A stretch of DNA of 40,974 nucleotides. Origin: an uncultured bacterium. Lineage in GTDB: Bacteria; Patescibacteriota; Minisyncoccia; UBA6257; 2-01-FULL-56-20. Each line of letters starts with the position of its first letter. The first letter of the stretch is position 1. Shown piece after piece: positions 2,699 to 28,103 of the stretch. The notes under the pieces were generated by a model, which saw nothing but the letters and a program-made list of their open reading frames with translations, searched no databases and had not been told where the DNA came from. A program made the translations under genes and the position numbers. The stretch spans positions 201,888 through 242,861 of the forward strand of contig OY970382.1 of assembly GCA_963719425.1 (NCBI GenBank), given 5' to 3'.

Positions 2699-2776
2699 GC
2701 AGAAATTGTAGCACGATTTCGGCGCGATGTGGCGTGTGGTAGCGCGGGGACGGGACTCTGCGATTCTTCTGTGATT

Positions 2777-4174
2777 CTACAACGCCGGAAGTTCGCTGTA
2801 CCGCTTTTCAACGCTCCTAAAGGTAACCCGTTCCGGATCAAAGGCGACCTCCACCTCGCCGATGGGGCCGTTCCTGTGTTTTGCGATGAGAATCTGCGTG
2901 ACGTTCTGGGTATCGCCACTCCCGCTGCTCGCATTGCCTTCGCCACCGATGTCAAACGTTTCGGCACTGCGGTCCTTGTGGTAGAGGAACATCACGATGT
3001 CAGCATCTTGCTCCAAGCTGCCACTTTCTCTTAAATCGGAGAGGCGCGGCACCTTGCGGTCGCGCTGCTCCACGCCGCGAGAAAGCTGCGATATGGCGAG
3101 CACGGGCACTTTGAGTTCGCGTGCGAGTGCCTTCAGGCCGTGCGAGATCTCCGTAACCTGCTGCACCATGTTGTCGGAGTTCGTGCGCGGGCGGATGAGC
3201 TGGAGATAATCCGCGATTAGGAGATCTAATCCGTGCTCCACTTGCAACCGCCGCGCCATAGAGCGCATCTGCATGATATTTAGGGACGGCGTGTCATCAA
3301 TGAAGAGCTTTGCTCCGGAAAGGCGATCCAGCGCCTGCTGGATCATGCCGAATTCCATATCGCTCTTGATGCGGCCAGTGAGGATATTCCAGAGCGGCAC
3401 CTGTGATTCCGCAGAAATGATACGGTCAATGACCTGCTCGCGCGACATCTCAAGCGAGAAAACGCCAATGGTATGGCCCGCAAGCGTGGCATTCCGCGCA
3501 ATATCCAACGCGAATGCGGTCTTTCCAGATGATGGCCGCCCGCCGAGAATGATGAGATCGGATTTTTGCAAACCAGACAGTTTGTTATCAAGTGCGGTGA
3601 AACCGGTGGGAACCCCGCGGAGCTTGTCGCCACCCTCATGGAGCTTCGCCATACGCTCCGCAGCGTTTTTCAATTCGTCTCTTACGGCGATGAAATTCTG
3701 CGGAGTGGATCTTTGCGAAATGGACAAAATCTTCTGTTCAATATTGTCCATCAGGTCTTCAAGCTCCTGCGTTGACCCGAACGCATCCTCCGTGATTTCG
3801 GCGGATGCTTTGATGAGATCGCGCAGCACCTTTTTTTCTTTCACGATGCCCGCGTAATGCTGTACGTGCGAGGCCGTCGTTACCTGGTTCGTGAGGTCCG
3901 CGAGATAGCTTGAGCCGCCAATCTGCGCGAGCGAGTCCCTTTCTTTGAGGTAGTTCGTCACGCTCAAAACATCAATCGGCTGCCGCTTTTCATAGAGCGC
4001 GAGAATCGCTTCGTAGATCTTTTCATGGGCAGGCGAATAAAAATCCTCTGGCACGATTATGTCCGCCACGCGGAAGATCGCGTTCTTATCTATCAGAATA
4101 CTTCCCAAAACCGCCTGTTCGGCTTCAAGGTTCTGCGGCGGGATTTTTAGTTGTGATTTTTTTGTTGCGGCCAT
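2777..4174 (-). CDS. dnaB: Replicative DNA helicase DnaB
   Basis: PPQNLEAEQAVLG, Walker A GRPSSGKT, DYLQL, SQLSR, LSDLRESGSLEQDAD; no intein. Confidence 0.96.
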   Translation of the reverse strand: MAATKKSQLKIPPQNLEAEQAVLGSILIDKNAIFRVADIIVPEDFYSPAHEKIYEAILALYEKRQPIDVLSVTNYLKERDSLAQIGGSSYLADLTNQVTTASHVQHYAGIVKEKKVLRDLIKASAEITEDAFGSTQELEDLMDNIEQKILSISQRSTPQNFIAVRDELKNAAERMAKLHEGGDKLRGVPTGFTALDNKLSGLQKSDLIILGGRPSSGKTAFALDIARNATLAGHTIGVFSLEMSREQVIDRIISAESQVPLWNILTGRIKSDMEFGMIQQALDRLSGAKLFIDDTPSLNIMQMRSMARRLQVEHGLDLLIADYLQLIRPRTNSDNMVQQVTEISHGLKALARELKVPVLAISQLSRGVEQRDRKVPRLSDLRESGSLEQDADIVMFLYHKDRSAETFDIGGEGNASSGSGDTQNVTQILIAKHRNGPIGEVEVAFDPERVTFRSVEKRYSELPAL

Positions 4175-5562
4175 AGGAAGGGTCCTTGTGGGGTATCCTC
4201 AACCTCATATCCTAGGCCGTTTATCTCTTTCCGCAAGCGGTCCGCCTGCTCAAACTGTTTATTATCTCTGGATTGCTCGCGCTCTTCGGCGAGTTTAGTG
4301 ATATTTTCTGGGACCTCTGGGGTTTTGAAGAAAAAACCAAGAGATTGCAGCTTGCTATTGAAATATTTGAAGTGGACTATGGCGTCGTGATGAGGCATAC
4401 CGTTTCGCATCAGCGGTTGAAATTCTAAAATTTGTTTGAATAATTCCGCAACGGCGGCGGCAGAATTTATATCATCTTCCAACGCGGTCCGAAATTGTTG
4501 GTCCGCTTCGTAAACAATTTTCTGATCTAGGTCCAAATGTCGAGATTCGCGCGATGCCCCACGACTTAAAATTTCAAGTTTTGCCAAGAATCGTTTTACG
4601 TTTTCAATCGTCGCTTCGGCTTGTTTGGCTAGGTCCTCCGAGTAATCGATAGGGGAACGATAGTGATGGGTCAACATGATGAGTTTCAAAACATCCGGCG
4701 AGTATTTTTTCAAGAAATCGCGAATGGTGATAAAGTTGCCCAAGCTCTTGGACATTTTTTTTCCCTCCGCGAGCAGCGCGCCGGTGTGCATCCAGATTCG
4801 CACGAAGGGCTTTTTCCCCGACGCGGATTCCTGTTGCGCGATCTCCGCTTCGTGATGGGGGAATTTCAGATCAACGCCGCCGCCGTGTATGTCGTATTGC
4901 GGTCCGAAATAGAAGTCAGCGATAGCGGTATCTTCAATGTGCCATCCGGGCCGTCCATTCCCGATCGCAGAGGGCCAGGCAGGCTCGCCGGGCTTTGAGA
5001 ATTTCCAGAGACAAAAATCACCCTTGTTTTTTTTGCCGACCGCCTCGTCAATGCGCGAGACGGCATCTTCCGCCTGCAGCGCGGTGCGGCCGGAGAGCTT
5101 CCCGTAATCGGGGAATTTTGCAATGTCAAAGTACCATCCGTCGCCGTCAATTTTGTACGCGCAACCCTTTTCAATGAGCCGCGCCACCTGCGCTACGATC
5201 TGCGTGATGAACTTCGTGGCAGGCGCATATTCGGTCACCGCATCCACGCCGAGCGCATTCATGTCTTCCCGATATGCTTCCGTGAAAAACTTGGCGAGCT
5301 CCTCGGGTTTTTTGTTCTCTTCCGCTGCACGCTTGATGATTTTATCGTCAATGTCCGTGACGTTTTGGAGGTAAAAAACGTCATATCCCTGCGACCGGAG
5401 ATATTTCGCGAAAAAATCAAAAAAAATGTAAGTTCGCGCGTGACCGATGTGCGCGTAATCGTAGACCGTCGGACCGCACACAAAGAACCGTATTTTTTTC
5501 TGGGCGCGCGGATCCGCCAACTCTTCTTTCTTCCGCGTGAGCGTATTATAGATCCTGATCAT
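4147..5562 (-). CDS. cysS: Cysteine--tRNA ligase
   Basis: CGPTVYDYAHIGHAR, GRPGWHIE, HGGGVDLKFPHHEAEIAQ, KMSKSLGN; overlaps dnaB start by 28 nt. Confidence 0.96.
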   Translation of the reverse strand: MIRIYNTLTRKKEELADPRAQKKIRFFVCGPTVYDYAHIGHARTYIFFDFFAKYLRSQGYDVFYLQNVTDIDDKIIKRAAEENKKPEELAKFFTEAYREDMNALGVDAVTEYAPATKFITQIVAQVARLIEKGCAYKIDGDGWYFDIAKFPDYGKLSGRTALQAEDAVSRIDEAVGKKNKGDFCLWKFSKPGEPAWPSAIGNGRPGWHIEDTAIADFYFGPQYDIHGGGVDLKFPHHEAEIAQQESASGKKPFVRIWMHTGALLAEGKKMSKSLGNFITIRDFLKKYSPDVLKLIMLTHHYRSPIDYSEDLAKQAEATIENVKRFLAKLEILSRGASRESRHLDLDQKIVYEADQQFRTALEDDINSAAAVAELFKQILEFQPLMRNGMPHHDAIVHFKYFNSKLQSLGFFFKTPEVPENITKLAEEREQSRDNKQFEQADRLRKEINGLGYEVEDTPQGPFLWPQQKNHN

Positions 5563-5574
5563 GGAGCGCCTGCG

Positions 5575-6456
5575 TTAAAACCATCCCTTGCGTTTGAAAT
5601 AGATCGCCATCACGATCATCGCGGCGGCCATGACGCCGGCCACGATCCAAAAGGCGCCCGGGAGACCTATGATGGGGGTGTCTTGCGTCCTCATGCTGAA
5701 GAGTCCGGCGAGGAGCACGAAGGGGAAGGTGAGGAACGAGAGCGCGGTGAATGTTTTCATCACGTTTGAAATTTTCAGATTCATCAGTTGGTTGTTGGTC
5801 TCCTCAAAATCAACGATAGTCTCGCGGTAGTCCTCCAGCTGGTTCACCACTTTCAGTTGGTCCCCGATGAGGTCGTTCAGGTATATTTCCGCATCGTCTC
5901 CCCAGAACTTTTTTCCTTTGGCAAGGAGTGAGCGGAGGATCGGCTCCTGAAGGCGCACGACGATGCGGTATTCCGACACGTCGCGCTTCAGGTACATGAT
6001 GCGGGCGAGGATTTCCTGCTCCTTCCCTTTGAAGATGTTCCGGCCGACACCTTCCACTTTTTCCCGGATGTGGCGCAGTTGCCGTTCTTCATAGGCGATC
6101 AGGTGCTCCACGATATGGCACATGAGCTCAAGAGAATTTTTTTCGTGCCGCACCGCAAAGTGATCCAGTGCTTCCGTGATTGGTTCGTAATGGACGGTAG
6201 CGACGGTATCCTTTGCGACAATGAAATCTATTTCCGTCCGCACCGATGTTTCATCATCTATATCGTACTTCGGGAAATAATAGACGAAGAAGAGATAGTC
6301 CTTATAAACCTCCGCGTGCGCCCGTGCGGAGGGGCCCTTGAGCTCCTCCACGATTACCGGGTGCAATCCGAACTTCTTCTTGAGCCATGCAAGGTCGCTT
6401 CTCGTTGGCCGTGCGATGTCGATCCATGCCACGCATTTGTTCCGCTCGGTATCCAT
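5575..6456 (-). CDS. CorA-family Mg2+/Co2+ transporter
   Basis: WIDI...GLHP N-terminus, NxVMKxFT, two C-terminal TM helices; FSMR in place of the canonical GMN. Confidence 0.85.
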   Translation of the reverse strand: MDTERNKCVAWIDIARPTRSDLAWLKKKFGLHPVIVEELKGPSARAHAEVYKDYLFFVYYFPKYDIDDETSVRTEIDFIVAKDTVATVHYEPITEALDHFAVRHEKNSLELMCHIVEHLIAYEERQLRHIREKVEGVGRNIFKGKEQEILARIMYLKRDVSEYRIVVRLQEPILRSLLAKGKKFWGDDAEIYLNDLIGDQLKVVNQLEDYRETIVDFEETNNQLMNLKISNVMKTFTALSFLTFPFVLLAGLFSMRTQDTPIIGLPGAFWIVAGVMAAAMIVMAIYFKRKGWF

Positions 6457-6463
6457 TGAAAAT

Positions 6464-6472
6464 ATTGTACCA
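6464..6472 (-). promoter_or_regulatory. Extended -10 promoter of corA-like gene
   Basis: Minus strand TGGTACAAT, 7 nt before the ATG at 6456. Confidence 0.55.
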
Positions 6473-6483
6473 TACCGCGCGTA

Positions 6484-6510
6484 TTAGCACTCTCTTGACA
6501 TGATTGCTAA
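6484..6510. promoter_or_regulatory. CIRCE operator (HrcA site)
   Basis: TTAGCACTC-N9-GATTGCTAA; one mismatch to the TTAGCACTC-N9-GAGTGCTAA consensus; directly upstream of hrcA. Confidence 0.92.
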
Positions 6511-12397: not shown

Positions 12398-12418
12398 AAT
12401 CCTAATATAGTTTGAGAA

Positions 12419-12434: not shown

Positions 12435-12472
12435 CGCCCCCACCAGGATTCGAACCTGGGACCATCTCCTTA
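12435..12472 (-). pseudogene. Outer tRNA-Lys 3' half (positions ~36-73)
   Basis: 12436-12472 is identical over 37 nt to 12524-12560 of the intact tRNA; discriminator position is G instead of A. Confidence 0.85.
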
Positions 12473-12489
12473 CTATTGGCAGCGAATTG

Positions 12490-12626
12490 AAAATGAAAAC
12501 ATAGTTTTTCTTTCGGGCAGAGTGCCCCCACCAGGATTCGAACCTGGGACCATCTCCTTAAAAGGGAGCTGCTCTGCCAACTGAGCTATAGGGGCACTCT
12601 GCCCAAAATAGCTATGTTTTCATTTT
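12490..12626. repeat. Inverted repeats flanking the intact tRNA-Lys
   Basis: AAAATGAAAACATAG (12490-12504) / CTATGTTTTCATTTT (12612-12626) and GGGCAGAGT (12515-12523) / ACTCTGCCC (12596-12604). Confidence 0.9.
12523..12595 (-). tRNA. tRNA-Lys(UUU)
   Basis: Full cloverleaf: GCCCCTA/TGGGGGC acceptor, loop CT-TTT-AA, GGTTCGAATCC T-arm; CCA not encoded. Confidence 0.93.
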
Positions 12627-12661
12627 TAATGAGCGAACCAATGGGCGAATTCTTATTCGCA

Positions 12662-12697
12662 AAAGGGAGTCAGCTCTCACCACTGAGCTATAGGGGC
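12662..12697 (-). pseudogene. Outer tRNA-Lys 5' half (positions 1-35)
   Basis: GCCCCTATAGCTCAGTGGTGAGAGCTGACTCCCTTT; same acceptor and D stem as the intact copy, different D loop; ends in the anticodon. Confidence 0.85.
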
Positions 12698-12707
12698 TTT
12701 CGTTGTC

Positions 12708-17322: not shown

Positions 17323-17352
17323 AATTTCAGGTGGTCGTGTTAACATTATCTC

Positions 17353-23855: not shown

Positions 23856-25405
<1,550 letters not shown>

Positions 25406-26260: not shown

Positions 26261-26908
26261 GTGAAATCATTTGGGAAAATCAAGCTTCAATGGTCGGCCG
26301 AATTCGCATATGCGATCGGGCTTTTGATGACGGACGGATGTTTGTCATCGGATGGACGGCACATTGATCTTACTTCCAAGGACGAAGAACAATTGTTGAA
26401 TTTCAAGAAATGTTTGGGCATCGGAACGAAAATCGGCTTTAAAACAAGCGGCTCCGGGAGAAAGGCCATGCGAGTTCAATTCGGCGATGTGAGTTTTTAT
26501 AATTTTCTTTTTGATATCGGGCTCATGCCGCGCAAGACAAAAATCATCGGAGCGGTAAAAATACCGGAAGAATACTTCTTTGATTTTCTCCGCGGCCATC
26601 TCGACGGTGACGACACCTTTTATTCGTATTGGGATCCGCGATGGCGGTCAAGCTATATGTTTTATACTGTTTTTCTCTCGGCAAGTCGTGCTCATATTGA
26701 ATGGATTAGGGCTAATGTCTTTGGAAAACTCGGCATCAAAGGCCACATGACGATAACTGGCAAGACGCCCATGTACGAAATGAAATATGCAAAAGCAGAA
26801 TCGTTGCAATTACTGCCAAAATTGTATTATAATCCGCATGTAGTTTGCCTTTCTCGCAAACGTGAAAAAATTGAGAAAGCGCTTGCGGTTGAGGGCAAAT
26901 GGTTATAG
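26261..26908 (+). CDS. Free-standing LAGLIDADG-family endonuclease-like protein
   Basis: Two motifs AYAIGLLMTDG and FLRGHLDGDD; GTG start; ends 2 nt before tRNA-Leu. Confidence 0.82.
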   Translation: MKSFGKIKLQWSAEFAYAIGLLMTDGCLSSDGRHIDLTSKDEEQLLNFKKCLGIGTKIGFKTSGSGRKAMRVQFGDVSFYNFLFDIGLMPRKTKIIGAVKIPEEYFFDFLRGHLDGDDTFYSYWDPRWRSSYMFYTVFLSASRAHIEWIRANVFGKLGIKGHMTITGKTPMYEMKYAKAESLQLLPKLYYNPHVVCLSRKREKIEKALAVEGKWL

Positions 26909-26910
26909 CT

Positions 26911-26991
26911 GCGCGGGTGGCGAAACGGTAAACGCGTGCGTTCGAGGGGCGCATGCCGAAAGGCTTGGAGGTTCGATTCCTCTCCCGCGCA
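26911..26991 (+). tRNA. tRNA-Leu(GAG)
   Basis: GCGCGGG/CCCGCGC acceptor, A73, long variable arm GCC-GAAA-GGC, anticodon loop TC-GAG-GG. Confidence 0.88.
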
Positions 26992-27076
26992 CAAAGACAA
27001 AAAGTATAGATTTTAATTGGGTAAAATAGGTTCGAACCCTGGAGCGAATCTATTTAAATAGGAGTATGATTAAGTC

Positions 27077-27244
27077 ATGAACTCCTCATATGTCGCAGCG
27101 GTCTTCGTTGTGCTGATGGTAGCCGTCATAATCGGCGTGGATATCCTATTCTTCAGGAACCTCTTTTGGGAACGGCTAGCTGTGAATGTGGGAATTGTTC
27201 TAATATTTATAGCATTCTACTTGAGATTCCTAAAGCATCTATAA
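27077..27244 (+). CDS. 55-aa two-TM membrane protein (not in ORF track)
   Basis: MNSSYVAAVFVVLMVAVIIGVDILFFRNLFWERLAVNVGIVLIFIAFYLRFLKHL; TATGAT 6 nt before the ATG. Confidence 0.75.
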   Translation: MNSSYVAAVFVVLMVAVIIGVDILFFRNLFWERLAVNVGIVLIFIAFYLRFLKHL

Positions 27245-27315
27245 ACGGATTTTCTGCATAAAATAGGTTCGAATTTGATCCGATCCTAAGGGCCATAAAA
27301 ACCTAATTACAAAAT

Positions 27316-27489
27316 ATGAAAAAATATTATATTGGGACTATCGCCGTAACCCTTGTCATATTGGCTGTCGGTTACTTCCTCGCCTCCGCCGCCACGTTTC
27401 ACGATATTTTCTCAGTTATCTGCGGTATCTGGATTGGATATGTCGCCGCGTGTGTGCACAGCTGGTACTACGCAAAGAAGTCGAAATAA
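27316..27489 (+). CDS. 57-aa two-TM membrane protein (not in ORF track)
   Basis: MKKYYIGTIAVTLVILAVGYFLASAATFHDIFSVICGIWIGYVAACVHSWYYAKKSK; basic residues at both ends. Confidence 0.7.
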   Translation: MKKYYIGTIAVTLVILAVGYFLASAATFHDIFSVICGIWIGYVAACVHSWYYAKKSK

Positions 27490-27569
27490 CGGCCGACCCT
27501 GTCAAACTATGGACTTAAAATAGGTTCGAACTTGGTTCGCTGTCCCGCACAAATTGGTATGATGGAAGG

Positions 27570-28103
27570 ATGCAGGAATACGTGACGGAGGCCGTCGTGT
27601 TGGAAAAGGAGCCGATTCGGGATTTTGATGCGCGGTATTCGTTTTTTACCAAGCGGTTTGGGAAATTGAAGGGAAAGGCGACGAGCGCAAGAAAGATTAC
27701 GTCCAAGCTTGCGGGGCATCTGGAACCGGGCACGCTCGCCAAGGTGCGCTTTGTGGCGCGGAGCGGCGAGAACGGCAACGGCGTGCAGATCGCGGATGCG
27801 TTGAAGTACGGGAGGCTTGCCGCGTCGCCGACCGACCTCCATTTTTTGAACAAGATGCTTCCGGAAGGGGAGCCTGACACCGCGCTGTGGAATGAACTCA
27901 CGCGGGAGCGCAGGGAGCAACGCTTCCCTTGGGGAAATGTGCTGCGAATCCTCGGCTGGGATCCGCGAGAAGCGGTTTGTGAAGAGTGCGGCAAGGGCAG
28001 AAAGGCCGCCGCGTTTTATATCCCGAAGCAGGAATTTTTCTGCGCCCCATGCGCTTCAAAATTGGAGCGGGATGCGTTACTATTACTAGGAGATGAGCCC
28101 TAA
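27570..28103 (+). CDS. recO: DNA repair protein RecO (short)
   Basis: OB-fold EAVVL..D....FFTKRFGKL..ARKITSKLAGHLEP, C4 motif CEEC..CAPC; TGGTATGAT 6 nt upstream. Confidence 0.88.
   Translation: MQEYVTEAVVLEKEPIRDFDARYSFFTKRFGKLKGKATSARKITSKLAGHLEPGTLAKVRFVARSGENGNGVQIADALKYGRLAASPTDLHFLNKMLPEGEPDTALWNELTRERREQRFPWGNVLRILGWDPREAVCEECGKGRKAAAFYIPKQEFFCAPCASKLERDALLLLGDEP

Follow-up and report, generated by a model that had tools for sequence, protein, structure and literature searches.

A miniature, probably mobile gene island with three identical 15-bp repeats behind tRNA-Leu in a Minisyncoccia bacterium

Bacteria of the candidate phyla radiation (CPR) have tiny streamlined genomes, and how they acquire genes is little understood. 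Here we describe a 561-bp islet of low guanine-plus-cytosine (GC) content that lies between a tRNA-Leu gene and recO in an uncultured bacterium of the Minisyncoccia. The whole stretch of DNA analysed, 40,974 nucleotides from contig OY970382.1 (positions 201,888 to 242,861), is called the window below, and all coordinates are those of the window unless another sequence is named. The islet carries two tiny membrane-protein genes and three copies of a 15-bp sequence, TAAAATAGGTTCGAA (the 15-mer), and an initial annotation, made from the sequence alone, had read it as an array built by repeated recombination, with one gene for each site. Sequences with which the window was compared bear numbers such as L002 and represent about a dozen independent contexts. 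The features of the locus are as follows.

26911..26992, plus strand: tRNA-Leu(GAG), the anchor of the islet (ARAGORN; Rfam tRNA, 46.5 bits)
26983..26995, plus strand: left direct repeat TCCCGCGCACAAA, the acceptor 3' strand of the tRNA plus its trailer (from the sequence; homology to L002 stops at 26992)
26993..27553, plus strand: the 561-bp low-GC islet, common to L030 and L006 and replaced in L002 (from homology and GC)
27022..27036, plus strand: copy 1 of the 15-mer, TAAAATAGGTTCGAA; with its flank it reads GGTTCGAACC, a 10-nt palindrome
27077..27244, plus strand: ORF55, an open reading frame (ORF) of 55 aa with two hydrophobic helices, member of a widespread conserved family of unknown function (homologues, substitution pattern, hydropathy)
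27259..27273, plus strand: copy 2 of the 15-mer; with its flank it equals copy 3 at 21 of 24 nt (repeat family D3)
27316..27489, plus strand: ORF57, 57 aa, two hydrophobic helices, member of a narrow lineage-restricted family (homologues, substitution pattern, hydropathy)
27516..27530, plus strand: copy 3 of the 15-mer; 27494-27531 is invariant across the window, L030 and L006
27543..27553, plus strand: right direct repeat TCCCGCACAAA, which echoes the 3' end of the tRNA and closes the islet on its right side in the window, L030 and L006
27570..28103, plus strand: recO, the host gene to the right of the islet (Pfam RecO_N, E = 1e-10, and RecO_C)

A scan of the window found the exact 15-mer at 27022, 27259 and 27516, in the three places initially reported and always on the plus strand, and no further site was found in the window even when two mismatches were allowed. 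Dinucleotide-preserving shuffles gave a mean of 0.12 matches, and three matches were reached in none of 100. The copies start 237 and 257 nt apart, and the distances from the end of each copy to the next ATG are 40, 42 and 39 nt for copies 1, 2 and 3, exactly as the initial annotation gave them, the third ATG being that of recO. The left flanks of the three copies are unrelated and the right flanks are related only weakly. The resemblance of the repeat to the tRNA also holds: AGGTTCGA is common to the 15-mer and the tRNA T-arm, and each of its six occurrences in the window is a tRNA T-arm, a copy of the 3' half of tRNA-Lys or one of the repeats. A perfect 12-nt palindrome, AGGTTCGAACCT, is found in L030 and L006. 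The same palindrome stands at 1551-1562 of L136, which belongs to a related genome of 914 kb, in an unrelated intergenic site 14 nt past the stop of a very large ORF, a recurrence which hints that the palindrome itself is a recognised site.

Each interval between repeats holds a single ORF, ORF55 or ORF57, and hydropathy profiles show two hydrophobic peaks in each, in agreement with the two transmembrane segments initially predicted. About 600 homologues of ORF55 were found, nearly all of 54-56 aa, in many CPR metagenome contigs as well as in Kitasatospora, Amycolatopsis and Streptosporangiaceae (63-69% amino-acid identity), and its coding region is present on large plasmids of Streptomyces, Rhodococcus and Deinococcus (73-77% nucleotide identity), where it is annotated as hypothetical. 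The locus thereby draws attention to a widespread unannotated family of 55-aa membrane proteins in CPR and Actinomycetota, with amino-acid identity of up to 69%. ORF57 has a much narrower distribution: a word-indexed search gave 8 clusters, and an exhaustive search of 1.8 billion representatives returned two full-length 57-aa relatives together with an 899-aa protein (E = 2e-10) that is matched in 14 stretches. Codon differences between either gene and its homologues fall mostly at third positions (for ORF55, 10 synonymous and 2 non-synonymous codon changes against L015, 21 and 8 against L031), and ORF55 and ORF57 are real genes whose homologues are under purifying selection. Neither matches anything in Pfam, NCBIfam, PADLOC or PDB that would point to a function, and exact look-ups of the ORF55, ORF57 and RecO sequences of the window gave no match. 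The relatives of RecO are from metagenome-assembled genomes of Minisyncoccia / Paceibacterota (Patescibacteria, CPR). A contig of 887,956 bp is on record for the ORF57 cluster of the window, which puts the source genome at roughly 0.9 Mb. Further members of the ORF55 family are located at 3976-4143 of L141 and 3982-4128 of L142, and genes for extracytoplasmic function (ECF) sigma factors adjoin genes of this family in several contexts (L031-L040, L141).

The islet starts at 26993, directly after the end of tRNA-Leu, and leaves the tRNA intact. Its GC content is 41.5% against 53.0% for the window, a value as low being found in just 0.1% of all 561-nt windows; the lower GC of the block had been noted initially, and an ORF of the LAGLIDADG type to its left is also low (43.5%). 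L002 departs from the window at 26992, right after the tRNA, and the homology of L030 and L006 stops at 27553, the final base of the echo, so that the islet is bracketed by an imperfect direct repeat that consists of the acceptor 3' strand of the tRNA and a 3-4-base trailer. The two ends, TCCCGCACAAA and TCCCGCGCACAAA, share an exact run of 7 nt (GCACAAA) and agree at 11 of 13 positions with a 2-nt gap. The right boundary is the same in the window, L030 and L006: it falls at CCCGCACAAA, a direct repeat of the tRNA 3' end and trailer. The degenerate echo that had been pointed out after copy 3 not only exists but coincides with the end of homology. Since its 2-nt deletion is common to all three genomes, the echo travels with the islet. 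L002 holds a better copy of this echo of the tRNA 3' end. No terminal inverted repeats of the kind carried by miniature inverted-repeat transposable elements (MITEs) or insertion sequences (IS) were found around the islet or its units. As to the tRNA itself, its anticodon loop (26942-26948) reads UCGAGGG in the ARAGORN fold, which puts C at position 33; L002 and L030 have U, and U is almost universal at this position of tRNAs.

One sign of movement comes from L030, a 216-kb contig, where the complete block follows tRNA-Leu(GAG), with ORF55 between copy 1 and a copy 2 that has decayed, ORF57 between this and an exact copy 3, and the echo at the end. The surroundings of this islet are different. 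A HAD hydrolase gene lies upstream, a convergent 77-aa gene and a terminator lie downstream, neither the LAGLIDADG gene nor recO is present, and the outer flanks reach only about 45-48% identity in forced alignment, i.e., they are unrelated to those of the window. Identity between the two genomes within the islet amounts to 96.4% for the left spacer, 97.0% for ORF55 and 95.4% for ORF57; outside it the identity is 68.5% for the tRNA body (from the 5' end to the variable arm) and 77.8% for nusB. That a non-coding spacer is far better kept than the adjoining tRNA and a housekeeping gene is most readily accounted for if the block was recently transferred horizontally to a site of the same kind. 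L006 is also more similar to the window in the islet (96-100% over most segments, 89% in the right spacer) than in recO and the sequence downstream of it (87.5%). Copies 1 and 3 with their flanks are among the best-kept parts of the islet in the three genomes, and copy 2 of L030 has decayed together with its flanks (4 of 15 positions changed).

The site itself is variable. In L002 (OY970175.1) the order of response regulator, L19, LAGLIDADG ORF, tRNA-Leu, variable stretch, recO and DUF11 protein genes is kept, and the comparison of the interval between tRNA and recO gives the following picture.

Window: the 561-bp islet with ORF55 and ORF57
L002 (RecO 88% identical): a 184-bp filler with neither ORF55 nor ORF57
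L006, L001 and L007 (RecO 88%): the islet and a further 607-bp unit
L004 (RecO 56%): an unrelated ORF
L003, L008 and L009 (RecO 72%): Nudix and Ham1-like genes, with tRNA-Tyr 2.6 kb upstream

The gene content at tRNA-Leu/recO, which the initial annotation proposed to compare among relatives, therefore varies, and neither an invariant content nor a motif placed singly upstream of unrelated genes was found in the window and the related loci. The filler of L002 carries TAAAATAGGT on the left, after a hairpin, and TTAAATCTTTCGAAG and CCCGCGCACAAAT on the right, before recO. The 607-bp unit of L006 sits between positions corresponding to 27553 and 27555 of the window and codes for a dCMP/dCTP-deaminase-like protein; it abuts the distal echo exactly, and at its end, 14 nt short of the promoter region of recO, stands a degenerate repeat, CAAAATCGTTCGAAG. 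The number of units is thus two in the window and three in L006, with non-coding filler in L002, and in these few genomes their order never varied.

The same genes are also found next to other tRNA genes. In L015-L021, ORF55 (96% identical) stands behind tRNA-Tyr and a terminator, and homology to the window covers 27055-27277, that is, a TATGAT box, ORF55, a 14-nt 3' spacer and a sequence similar to copy 2, TAACATAGGTTTGAA; in these loci ORF55 is followed by a Peptidase_S51 gene, then by GAAAATAGGTCCGTA and a methyltransferase gene. L140 has a sequence similar to copy 1, TAAAATAGATTCGAA, followed by ORF55, with no tRNA and no downstream copy. In L138, tRNA-Arg is followed by ORF55 and, after just 6 nt, by ORF57, with no 15-mer; L137 has tRNA-Gln and then ORF57. 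ORF57 is alone in L136, where the homology begins at 27274, 1 nt past copy 2, and is preceded by a TATGAT box of the ORF55 type. Another contig, compared by gene content only, has a class-I aminoacyl-tRNA synthetase gene, an upstream context as in L015, and then a 71-aa ORF, a 55-aa ORF and ORF57. Homologues of ORF55 at 79-87% identity are located in arrays of small genes that lack the motif. Where a single unit is homologous, the block of homology never continues beyond a 15-mer to reach the adjacent unit.

The islet is foreign in composition, has been transferred between genomes, has a direct-repeat boundary and occupies a site that is variable among relatives. We consider it highly likely, with a probability of roughly 0.8, that this is a mobile island of miniature size, placed at the 3' end of tRNA-Leu, where single-gene units are gained and lost. 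Genomic islands are known to reside at tRNA 3' ends and to decay to cis-mobilizable elements (CIMEs) that may grow by tandem accretion (reviewed in PMC5704250, which cites Pavlovic 2004 and Bellanger 2011). The closest known kind to which the islet can be compared is a tRNA-linked island after such decay and such growth. Like these islands, it adjoins the 3' end of a tRNA gene and has a direct repeat of this end as its boundary; it is atypical in composition and sporadic in distribution, and core genes resemble each other less across genomes than it does. Like CIMEs, it has no integrase of its own, and the additional unit of L006 appears to have been added in tandem exactly at the distal att-like repeat. 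The differences are equally clear. An islet of 561 bp with one-gene units of 237-607 bp is one to three orders smaller than islands that measure kilobases to hundreds of kilobases; its exact direct repeat with the tRNA is just 7 nt long, and a cognate integrase was not found; and the internal 15-mer is not a copy of the tRNA end but shares with the tRNA only an 8-9-nt T-arm consensus. An att copy inside the islet, at repeat 2, can be recognised only weakly.

Two other systems built of small modules invite comparison. In layout, the islet resembles integrons (IntI, attI, attC) in having one gene per unit, a repeated site between units, the same orientation of genes, variable content and very small units, and the initial annotation was right that this layout comes with neither attC nor intI: there is no intI here, no attC structure or cores, and the site is an exact 15-mer rather than a folded imperfect palindrome. 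Further, integron cassettes are promoterless and are read from a common Pc, whereas most units here appear to have a promoter-like -10 box of their own; the array is anchored to a tRNA gene, and its gene order is invariant in the few genomes compared. The pdif (Xer-dependent) modules of Acinetobacter plasmids contain one or a few genes between short recombination sites that are served by a host recombinase encoded elsewhere. Small gene modules separated by short repeated sites are common to both, but the site described here is not a 28-bp XerC/XerD dyad, the arms around TTCGAA are, by inspection, not inverted repeats, and all copies are direct and not alternating.

How the units could have been acquired is a separate question, and the arrangement of the 15-mers offers one answer. 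First, a short element or scar behind the tRNA would have left a degenerate copy of the 3' part of the tRNA, made of a T-arm-like AGGTTCGAAC, the CCCGCAC echo of the acceptor and the AAA trailer. Single-gene units (ORF55, ORF57 and, in the sister lineage, the deaminase) would then have been inserted successively into this pseudo-T-arm, each insertion being a site-specific recombination that duplicates the 15-bp segment of identity, with the recombinase supplied in trans. Serial insertion would explain why n genes are accompanied by n+1 identical 15-mers with otherwise unrelated flanks. A pseudo-tRNA 3' end as the platform is favoured because copy 3 and its flank resemble a decayed tRNA from T-arm to trailer (AGGTTCGAAC..CCCGCACAAA) and because a comparable copy of tRNA-Lys is present in the genome. 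We infer that the 15-mer is a recombination core and not a regulatory site, and the order of these events is inferred in the same way. Insertion of one unit after another, by site-specific recombination, into a T-arm-like pseudo-site behind the tRNA, the recombinase acting in trans and the likeness to integrons being confined to the layout, has in our opinion slightly less than an even chance of being correct, and that the n+1 identical copies are the trace of such insertion into one core is a little more tentative still. The TAAAAT within the 15-mer may additionally act as a promoter of ORF57.

A number of observations weigh against serial insertion at the 15-mer. The recombinase that was proposed to be encoded elsewhere did not turn up: the window ORFs that were scanned against Pfam contain no domain of an integrase, a resolvase or a transposase, and no recombinase was found within 4-5 kb among the called genes of the related contexts, the one exception being an IS3-like helix-turn-helix fragment in L024. 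The breakpoints of homology are scattered over the spacers, with three of about 17 located within 4 nt of the 3' edge of the 15-mer where about 0.9 would be expected, a post hoc and non-significant excess, and both the indel of the deaminase unit and the outer boundary of the islet fall at the echo, 23-24 nt beyond the 15-mer. ORF55 precedes ORF57 in all five contexts that hold both. Among the contexts compared there was no empty site, no circle junction and no shuffled order, and in several contexts (L022-L040, L136-L138) the motif is missing beside these genes. Collections of IMG/VR, phages and plasmids contained no donor element. What the comparisons support of the one-gene-per-site array is the variable content, the foreign composition, the mobility, the units next to other tRNA genes, the third unit of L006 with its degenerate fourth repeat and the boundary at the echo; a crossover at the 15-mer finds no clear support, given the scattered breakpoints, the indel at the echo, the fixed order and the lack of a recombinase gene in the window and the related contexts.

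A phage or plasmid as the donor was considered and rejected, since the 95 single matches to the exact 15-mer in IMG/VR are about the number estimated for chance; the sequence around them is unrelated, consists in large part of a single conserved stretch that recurs, and does not extend the match. ORF55 and ORF57 were not found on IMG/VR contigs, the islet had no match in phages, and plasmids matched the coding region of ORF55 only.

What bears on gene acquisition in CPR is that a 561-bp unit has moved between genomes and lies at a tRNA-linked site where single genes are gained and lost. If the 15-mer is a recombination core, the locus would be a minimal platform for gene capture, far smaller than classical tRNA islands and mechanistically distinct from integrons; if its role is only that of promoter or operator, what remains is a decayed mini-island of an ordinary kind. 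The boldest extension is an undescribed way of gene capture in CPR (Minisyncoccia), in which circular single-gene units of about 240-600 bp would recombine at the 15-bp T-loop-like core TAAAATAGGTTCGAA behind tRNA genes to give integron-like arrays with neither IntI nor attC, a chromosomal recombinase would act in trans, and units with ORF55, ORF57, the deaminase or the peptidase would circulate among tRNA-Leu, tRNA-Tyr, tRNA-Arg and tRNA-Gln sites; we regard it as rather unlikely.

The main rival retained is the shared operator that the initial annotation named as its alternative. According to it, the 15-mer would be a promoter/operator module, with TAAAAT as a -10 element of the sigma-70 type and the (semi)palindrome AGGTTCGAAC(CT) as a putative operator of a dimeric regulator, copied before three starts in an islet that would still be mobile. 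The hexamer agrees with other -10 boxes of the genome (TACAAT, TATAAT, TAACAT, TAAAAT), most diverged copies retain its key positions (TAACAT, GAAAAT, CGAAAT, and TAAAAT in L002), and all copies are oriented as the genes, 39-42 nt ahead of the next ATG. The palindrome AGGTTCGAACCT of L030, L006 and the intergenic site of L136 is also in line with an operator next to a -10-like hexamer. The 39-42-nt spacing is not kept in relatives, where the distance from motif to start is 17, 25, 46, 51 or 88 nt (L006, L140, L015, L001). No -35 element was found by scan or inspection, although a -10 box by itself seems to serve many genes here; copy 1 of L006 reads TAAAAC and has lost the key final T, and no other copy of the motif is present in 41 kb of the window and about 300 kb of related loci. 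In L015 the motif travels with, and follows, the upstream gene and is absent upstream of ORF55, and in L030 the perfectly conserved copy 3 faces a terminator and a convergent gene, so that one conserved copy does not lead into any gene.

The promoters of neighbouring genes bear on this rival too, and the following elements are relevant.

27065..27070, plus strand: TATGAT, a -10-like hexamer 6 nt before the ATG of ORF55 (from the sequence; geometry as at RecR, CorA, YdjM, PHP and recO)
27555..27563, plus strand: TGGTATGAT, an extended -10-like element 6 nt before the ATG of recO, in the host flank and conserved in L002 and L006 (from the sequence)
2699-2715 (minus), 6457-6476 (minus), 12398-12414 (minus), 17336-17352, 27065-27076 and 27555-27569: examples of TAnnnT boxes

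In many genes of the window a TAnnnT box precedes the start codon by 6-8 nt (RecR TACAAT, CorA TGGTACAAT, YdjM TATATT, PHP TAACAT, GrpE TATAAT), a pattern that suggests widespread leaderless transcripts. Judged from sequence only, boxes 6-7 nt before the ATG belong to ORF55, recO, the deaminase gene of L006 and the peptidase and methyltransferase genes of L015, so the 15-mer is unnecessary as their promoter; of the three genes that follow a repeat in the window, two would have a leaderless-type promoter of their own. ORF57 is different. It has no good -10 box next to its ATG, and where other genomes have its conserved 5' leader, different promoter-like sequences precede this leader at the corresponding position, TATGAT in L136 and TTGACT followed by TATTTA in L137; ORF57 may thus use the TAAAAT of copy 2. 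A promoter/operator module as the sole role of the 15-mer appears doubtful to us, the same orientation and the 39-42-nt distances speaking for it and the spacing in relatives against; it should be noted that the recombination and promoter/operator readings are not mutually exclusive. A general promoter motif was rejected, as no further copy was found at up to three mismatches in the window or related loci. By inspection, a -35 element, an ECF-type promoter, a LexA box and a Xer/dif-like dyad do not fit.

Quite improbable, in our view, is that the repeats are functionless relics of local duplication, e.g., tRNA T-arm fragments that originated in repair or are held identical by gene conversion. 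The 9-mer AGGTTCGAA is indeed a generic T-arm consensus, a further partial duplication of a tRNA exists in the same genome, at tRNA-Lys, and the decay of copy 2 and its flanks in L030 appears to have been free. Relics would hardly be expected, however, to be identical at 15 of 15 positions amid unrelated flanks, to conserve the non-tRNA part TAAAAT as well, or, in the case of copies 1 and 3, to rank with their flanks among the best-kept parts of the islet in three genomes.

There is very little to recommend a role at the level of RNA or single-stranded DNA, as a tRNA-like processing signal, a terminator or a folded attC-like site. The repeats are T-arm-like and copy 1 can fold into an 11-bp hairpin, AAATAGGTTCG / CGAATCTATTT, but the three spacers fold no better than shuffles (z from -0.23 to +0.90) and into different structures, a T to C change in L006 breaks the hairpin of copy 1 with no compensatory change, Rfam finds nothing beyond tRNA, there is no U-tract, and neither strand of 26993-27569 contains GTTRRRY or RYYYAAC cores. 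The idea that a LAGLIDADG homing endonuclease targets the region, with break repair driving turnover and the repeats serving as its recognition sites, is hardly credible: a low-GC LAGLIDADG ORF is indeed directly upstream of the tRNA in the window and in L002, but L030 has the complete islet with three repeats and no such gene nearby, and L002 has the endonuclease gene with no islet.

26261..26908, plus strand: LAGLIDADG-type ORF, free-standing, 215 aa, 43.5% GC, between rplS (L19) and tRNA-Leu (present in L002 at 5053-5708, absent beside the islet of L030)

This ORF is probably a separate mobile insertion.

Several minor observations were made at other places. On the minus strand of the window, tRNA-Lys(UUU) (12522-12595) has an exact 36-nt copy of its 3' half about 50 nt behind it (region 12436-12700); a diverged 5' half of tRNA-Lys is located about 65 nt upstream, and the intact tRNA is flanked by an inverted repeat of about 30 nt. 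The region resembles an att-type scar, or else a tRNA gene split by an inserted segment with a second tRNA-Lys on it. The 16S rRNA gene of L002 has two insertions of about 264 and 300 nt (2279-2543 and 3369-3671) that are absent from the 16S of the window (24079-24082 and 24908); these are rRNA insertions of the CPR type. At 6929-7728 of L015 there are three copies of a 20-nt element, TAGAACCTATCT(C/G)AAAAATA, which builds inverted arms of 37 nt on either side of a 91-bp segment and of 20 nt on either side of a MarC-family gene, an arrangement that resembles an invertible segment or a MITE-like structure; ATAGGTTC is common to this element and the 15-mer of the window. Finally, an inverted repeat similar to CIRCE (controlling inverted repeat of chaperone expression), TTAGCACTC N9 GAGTGCTAA, is present between corA and hrcA, at about 6460-6500.

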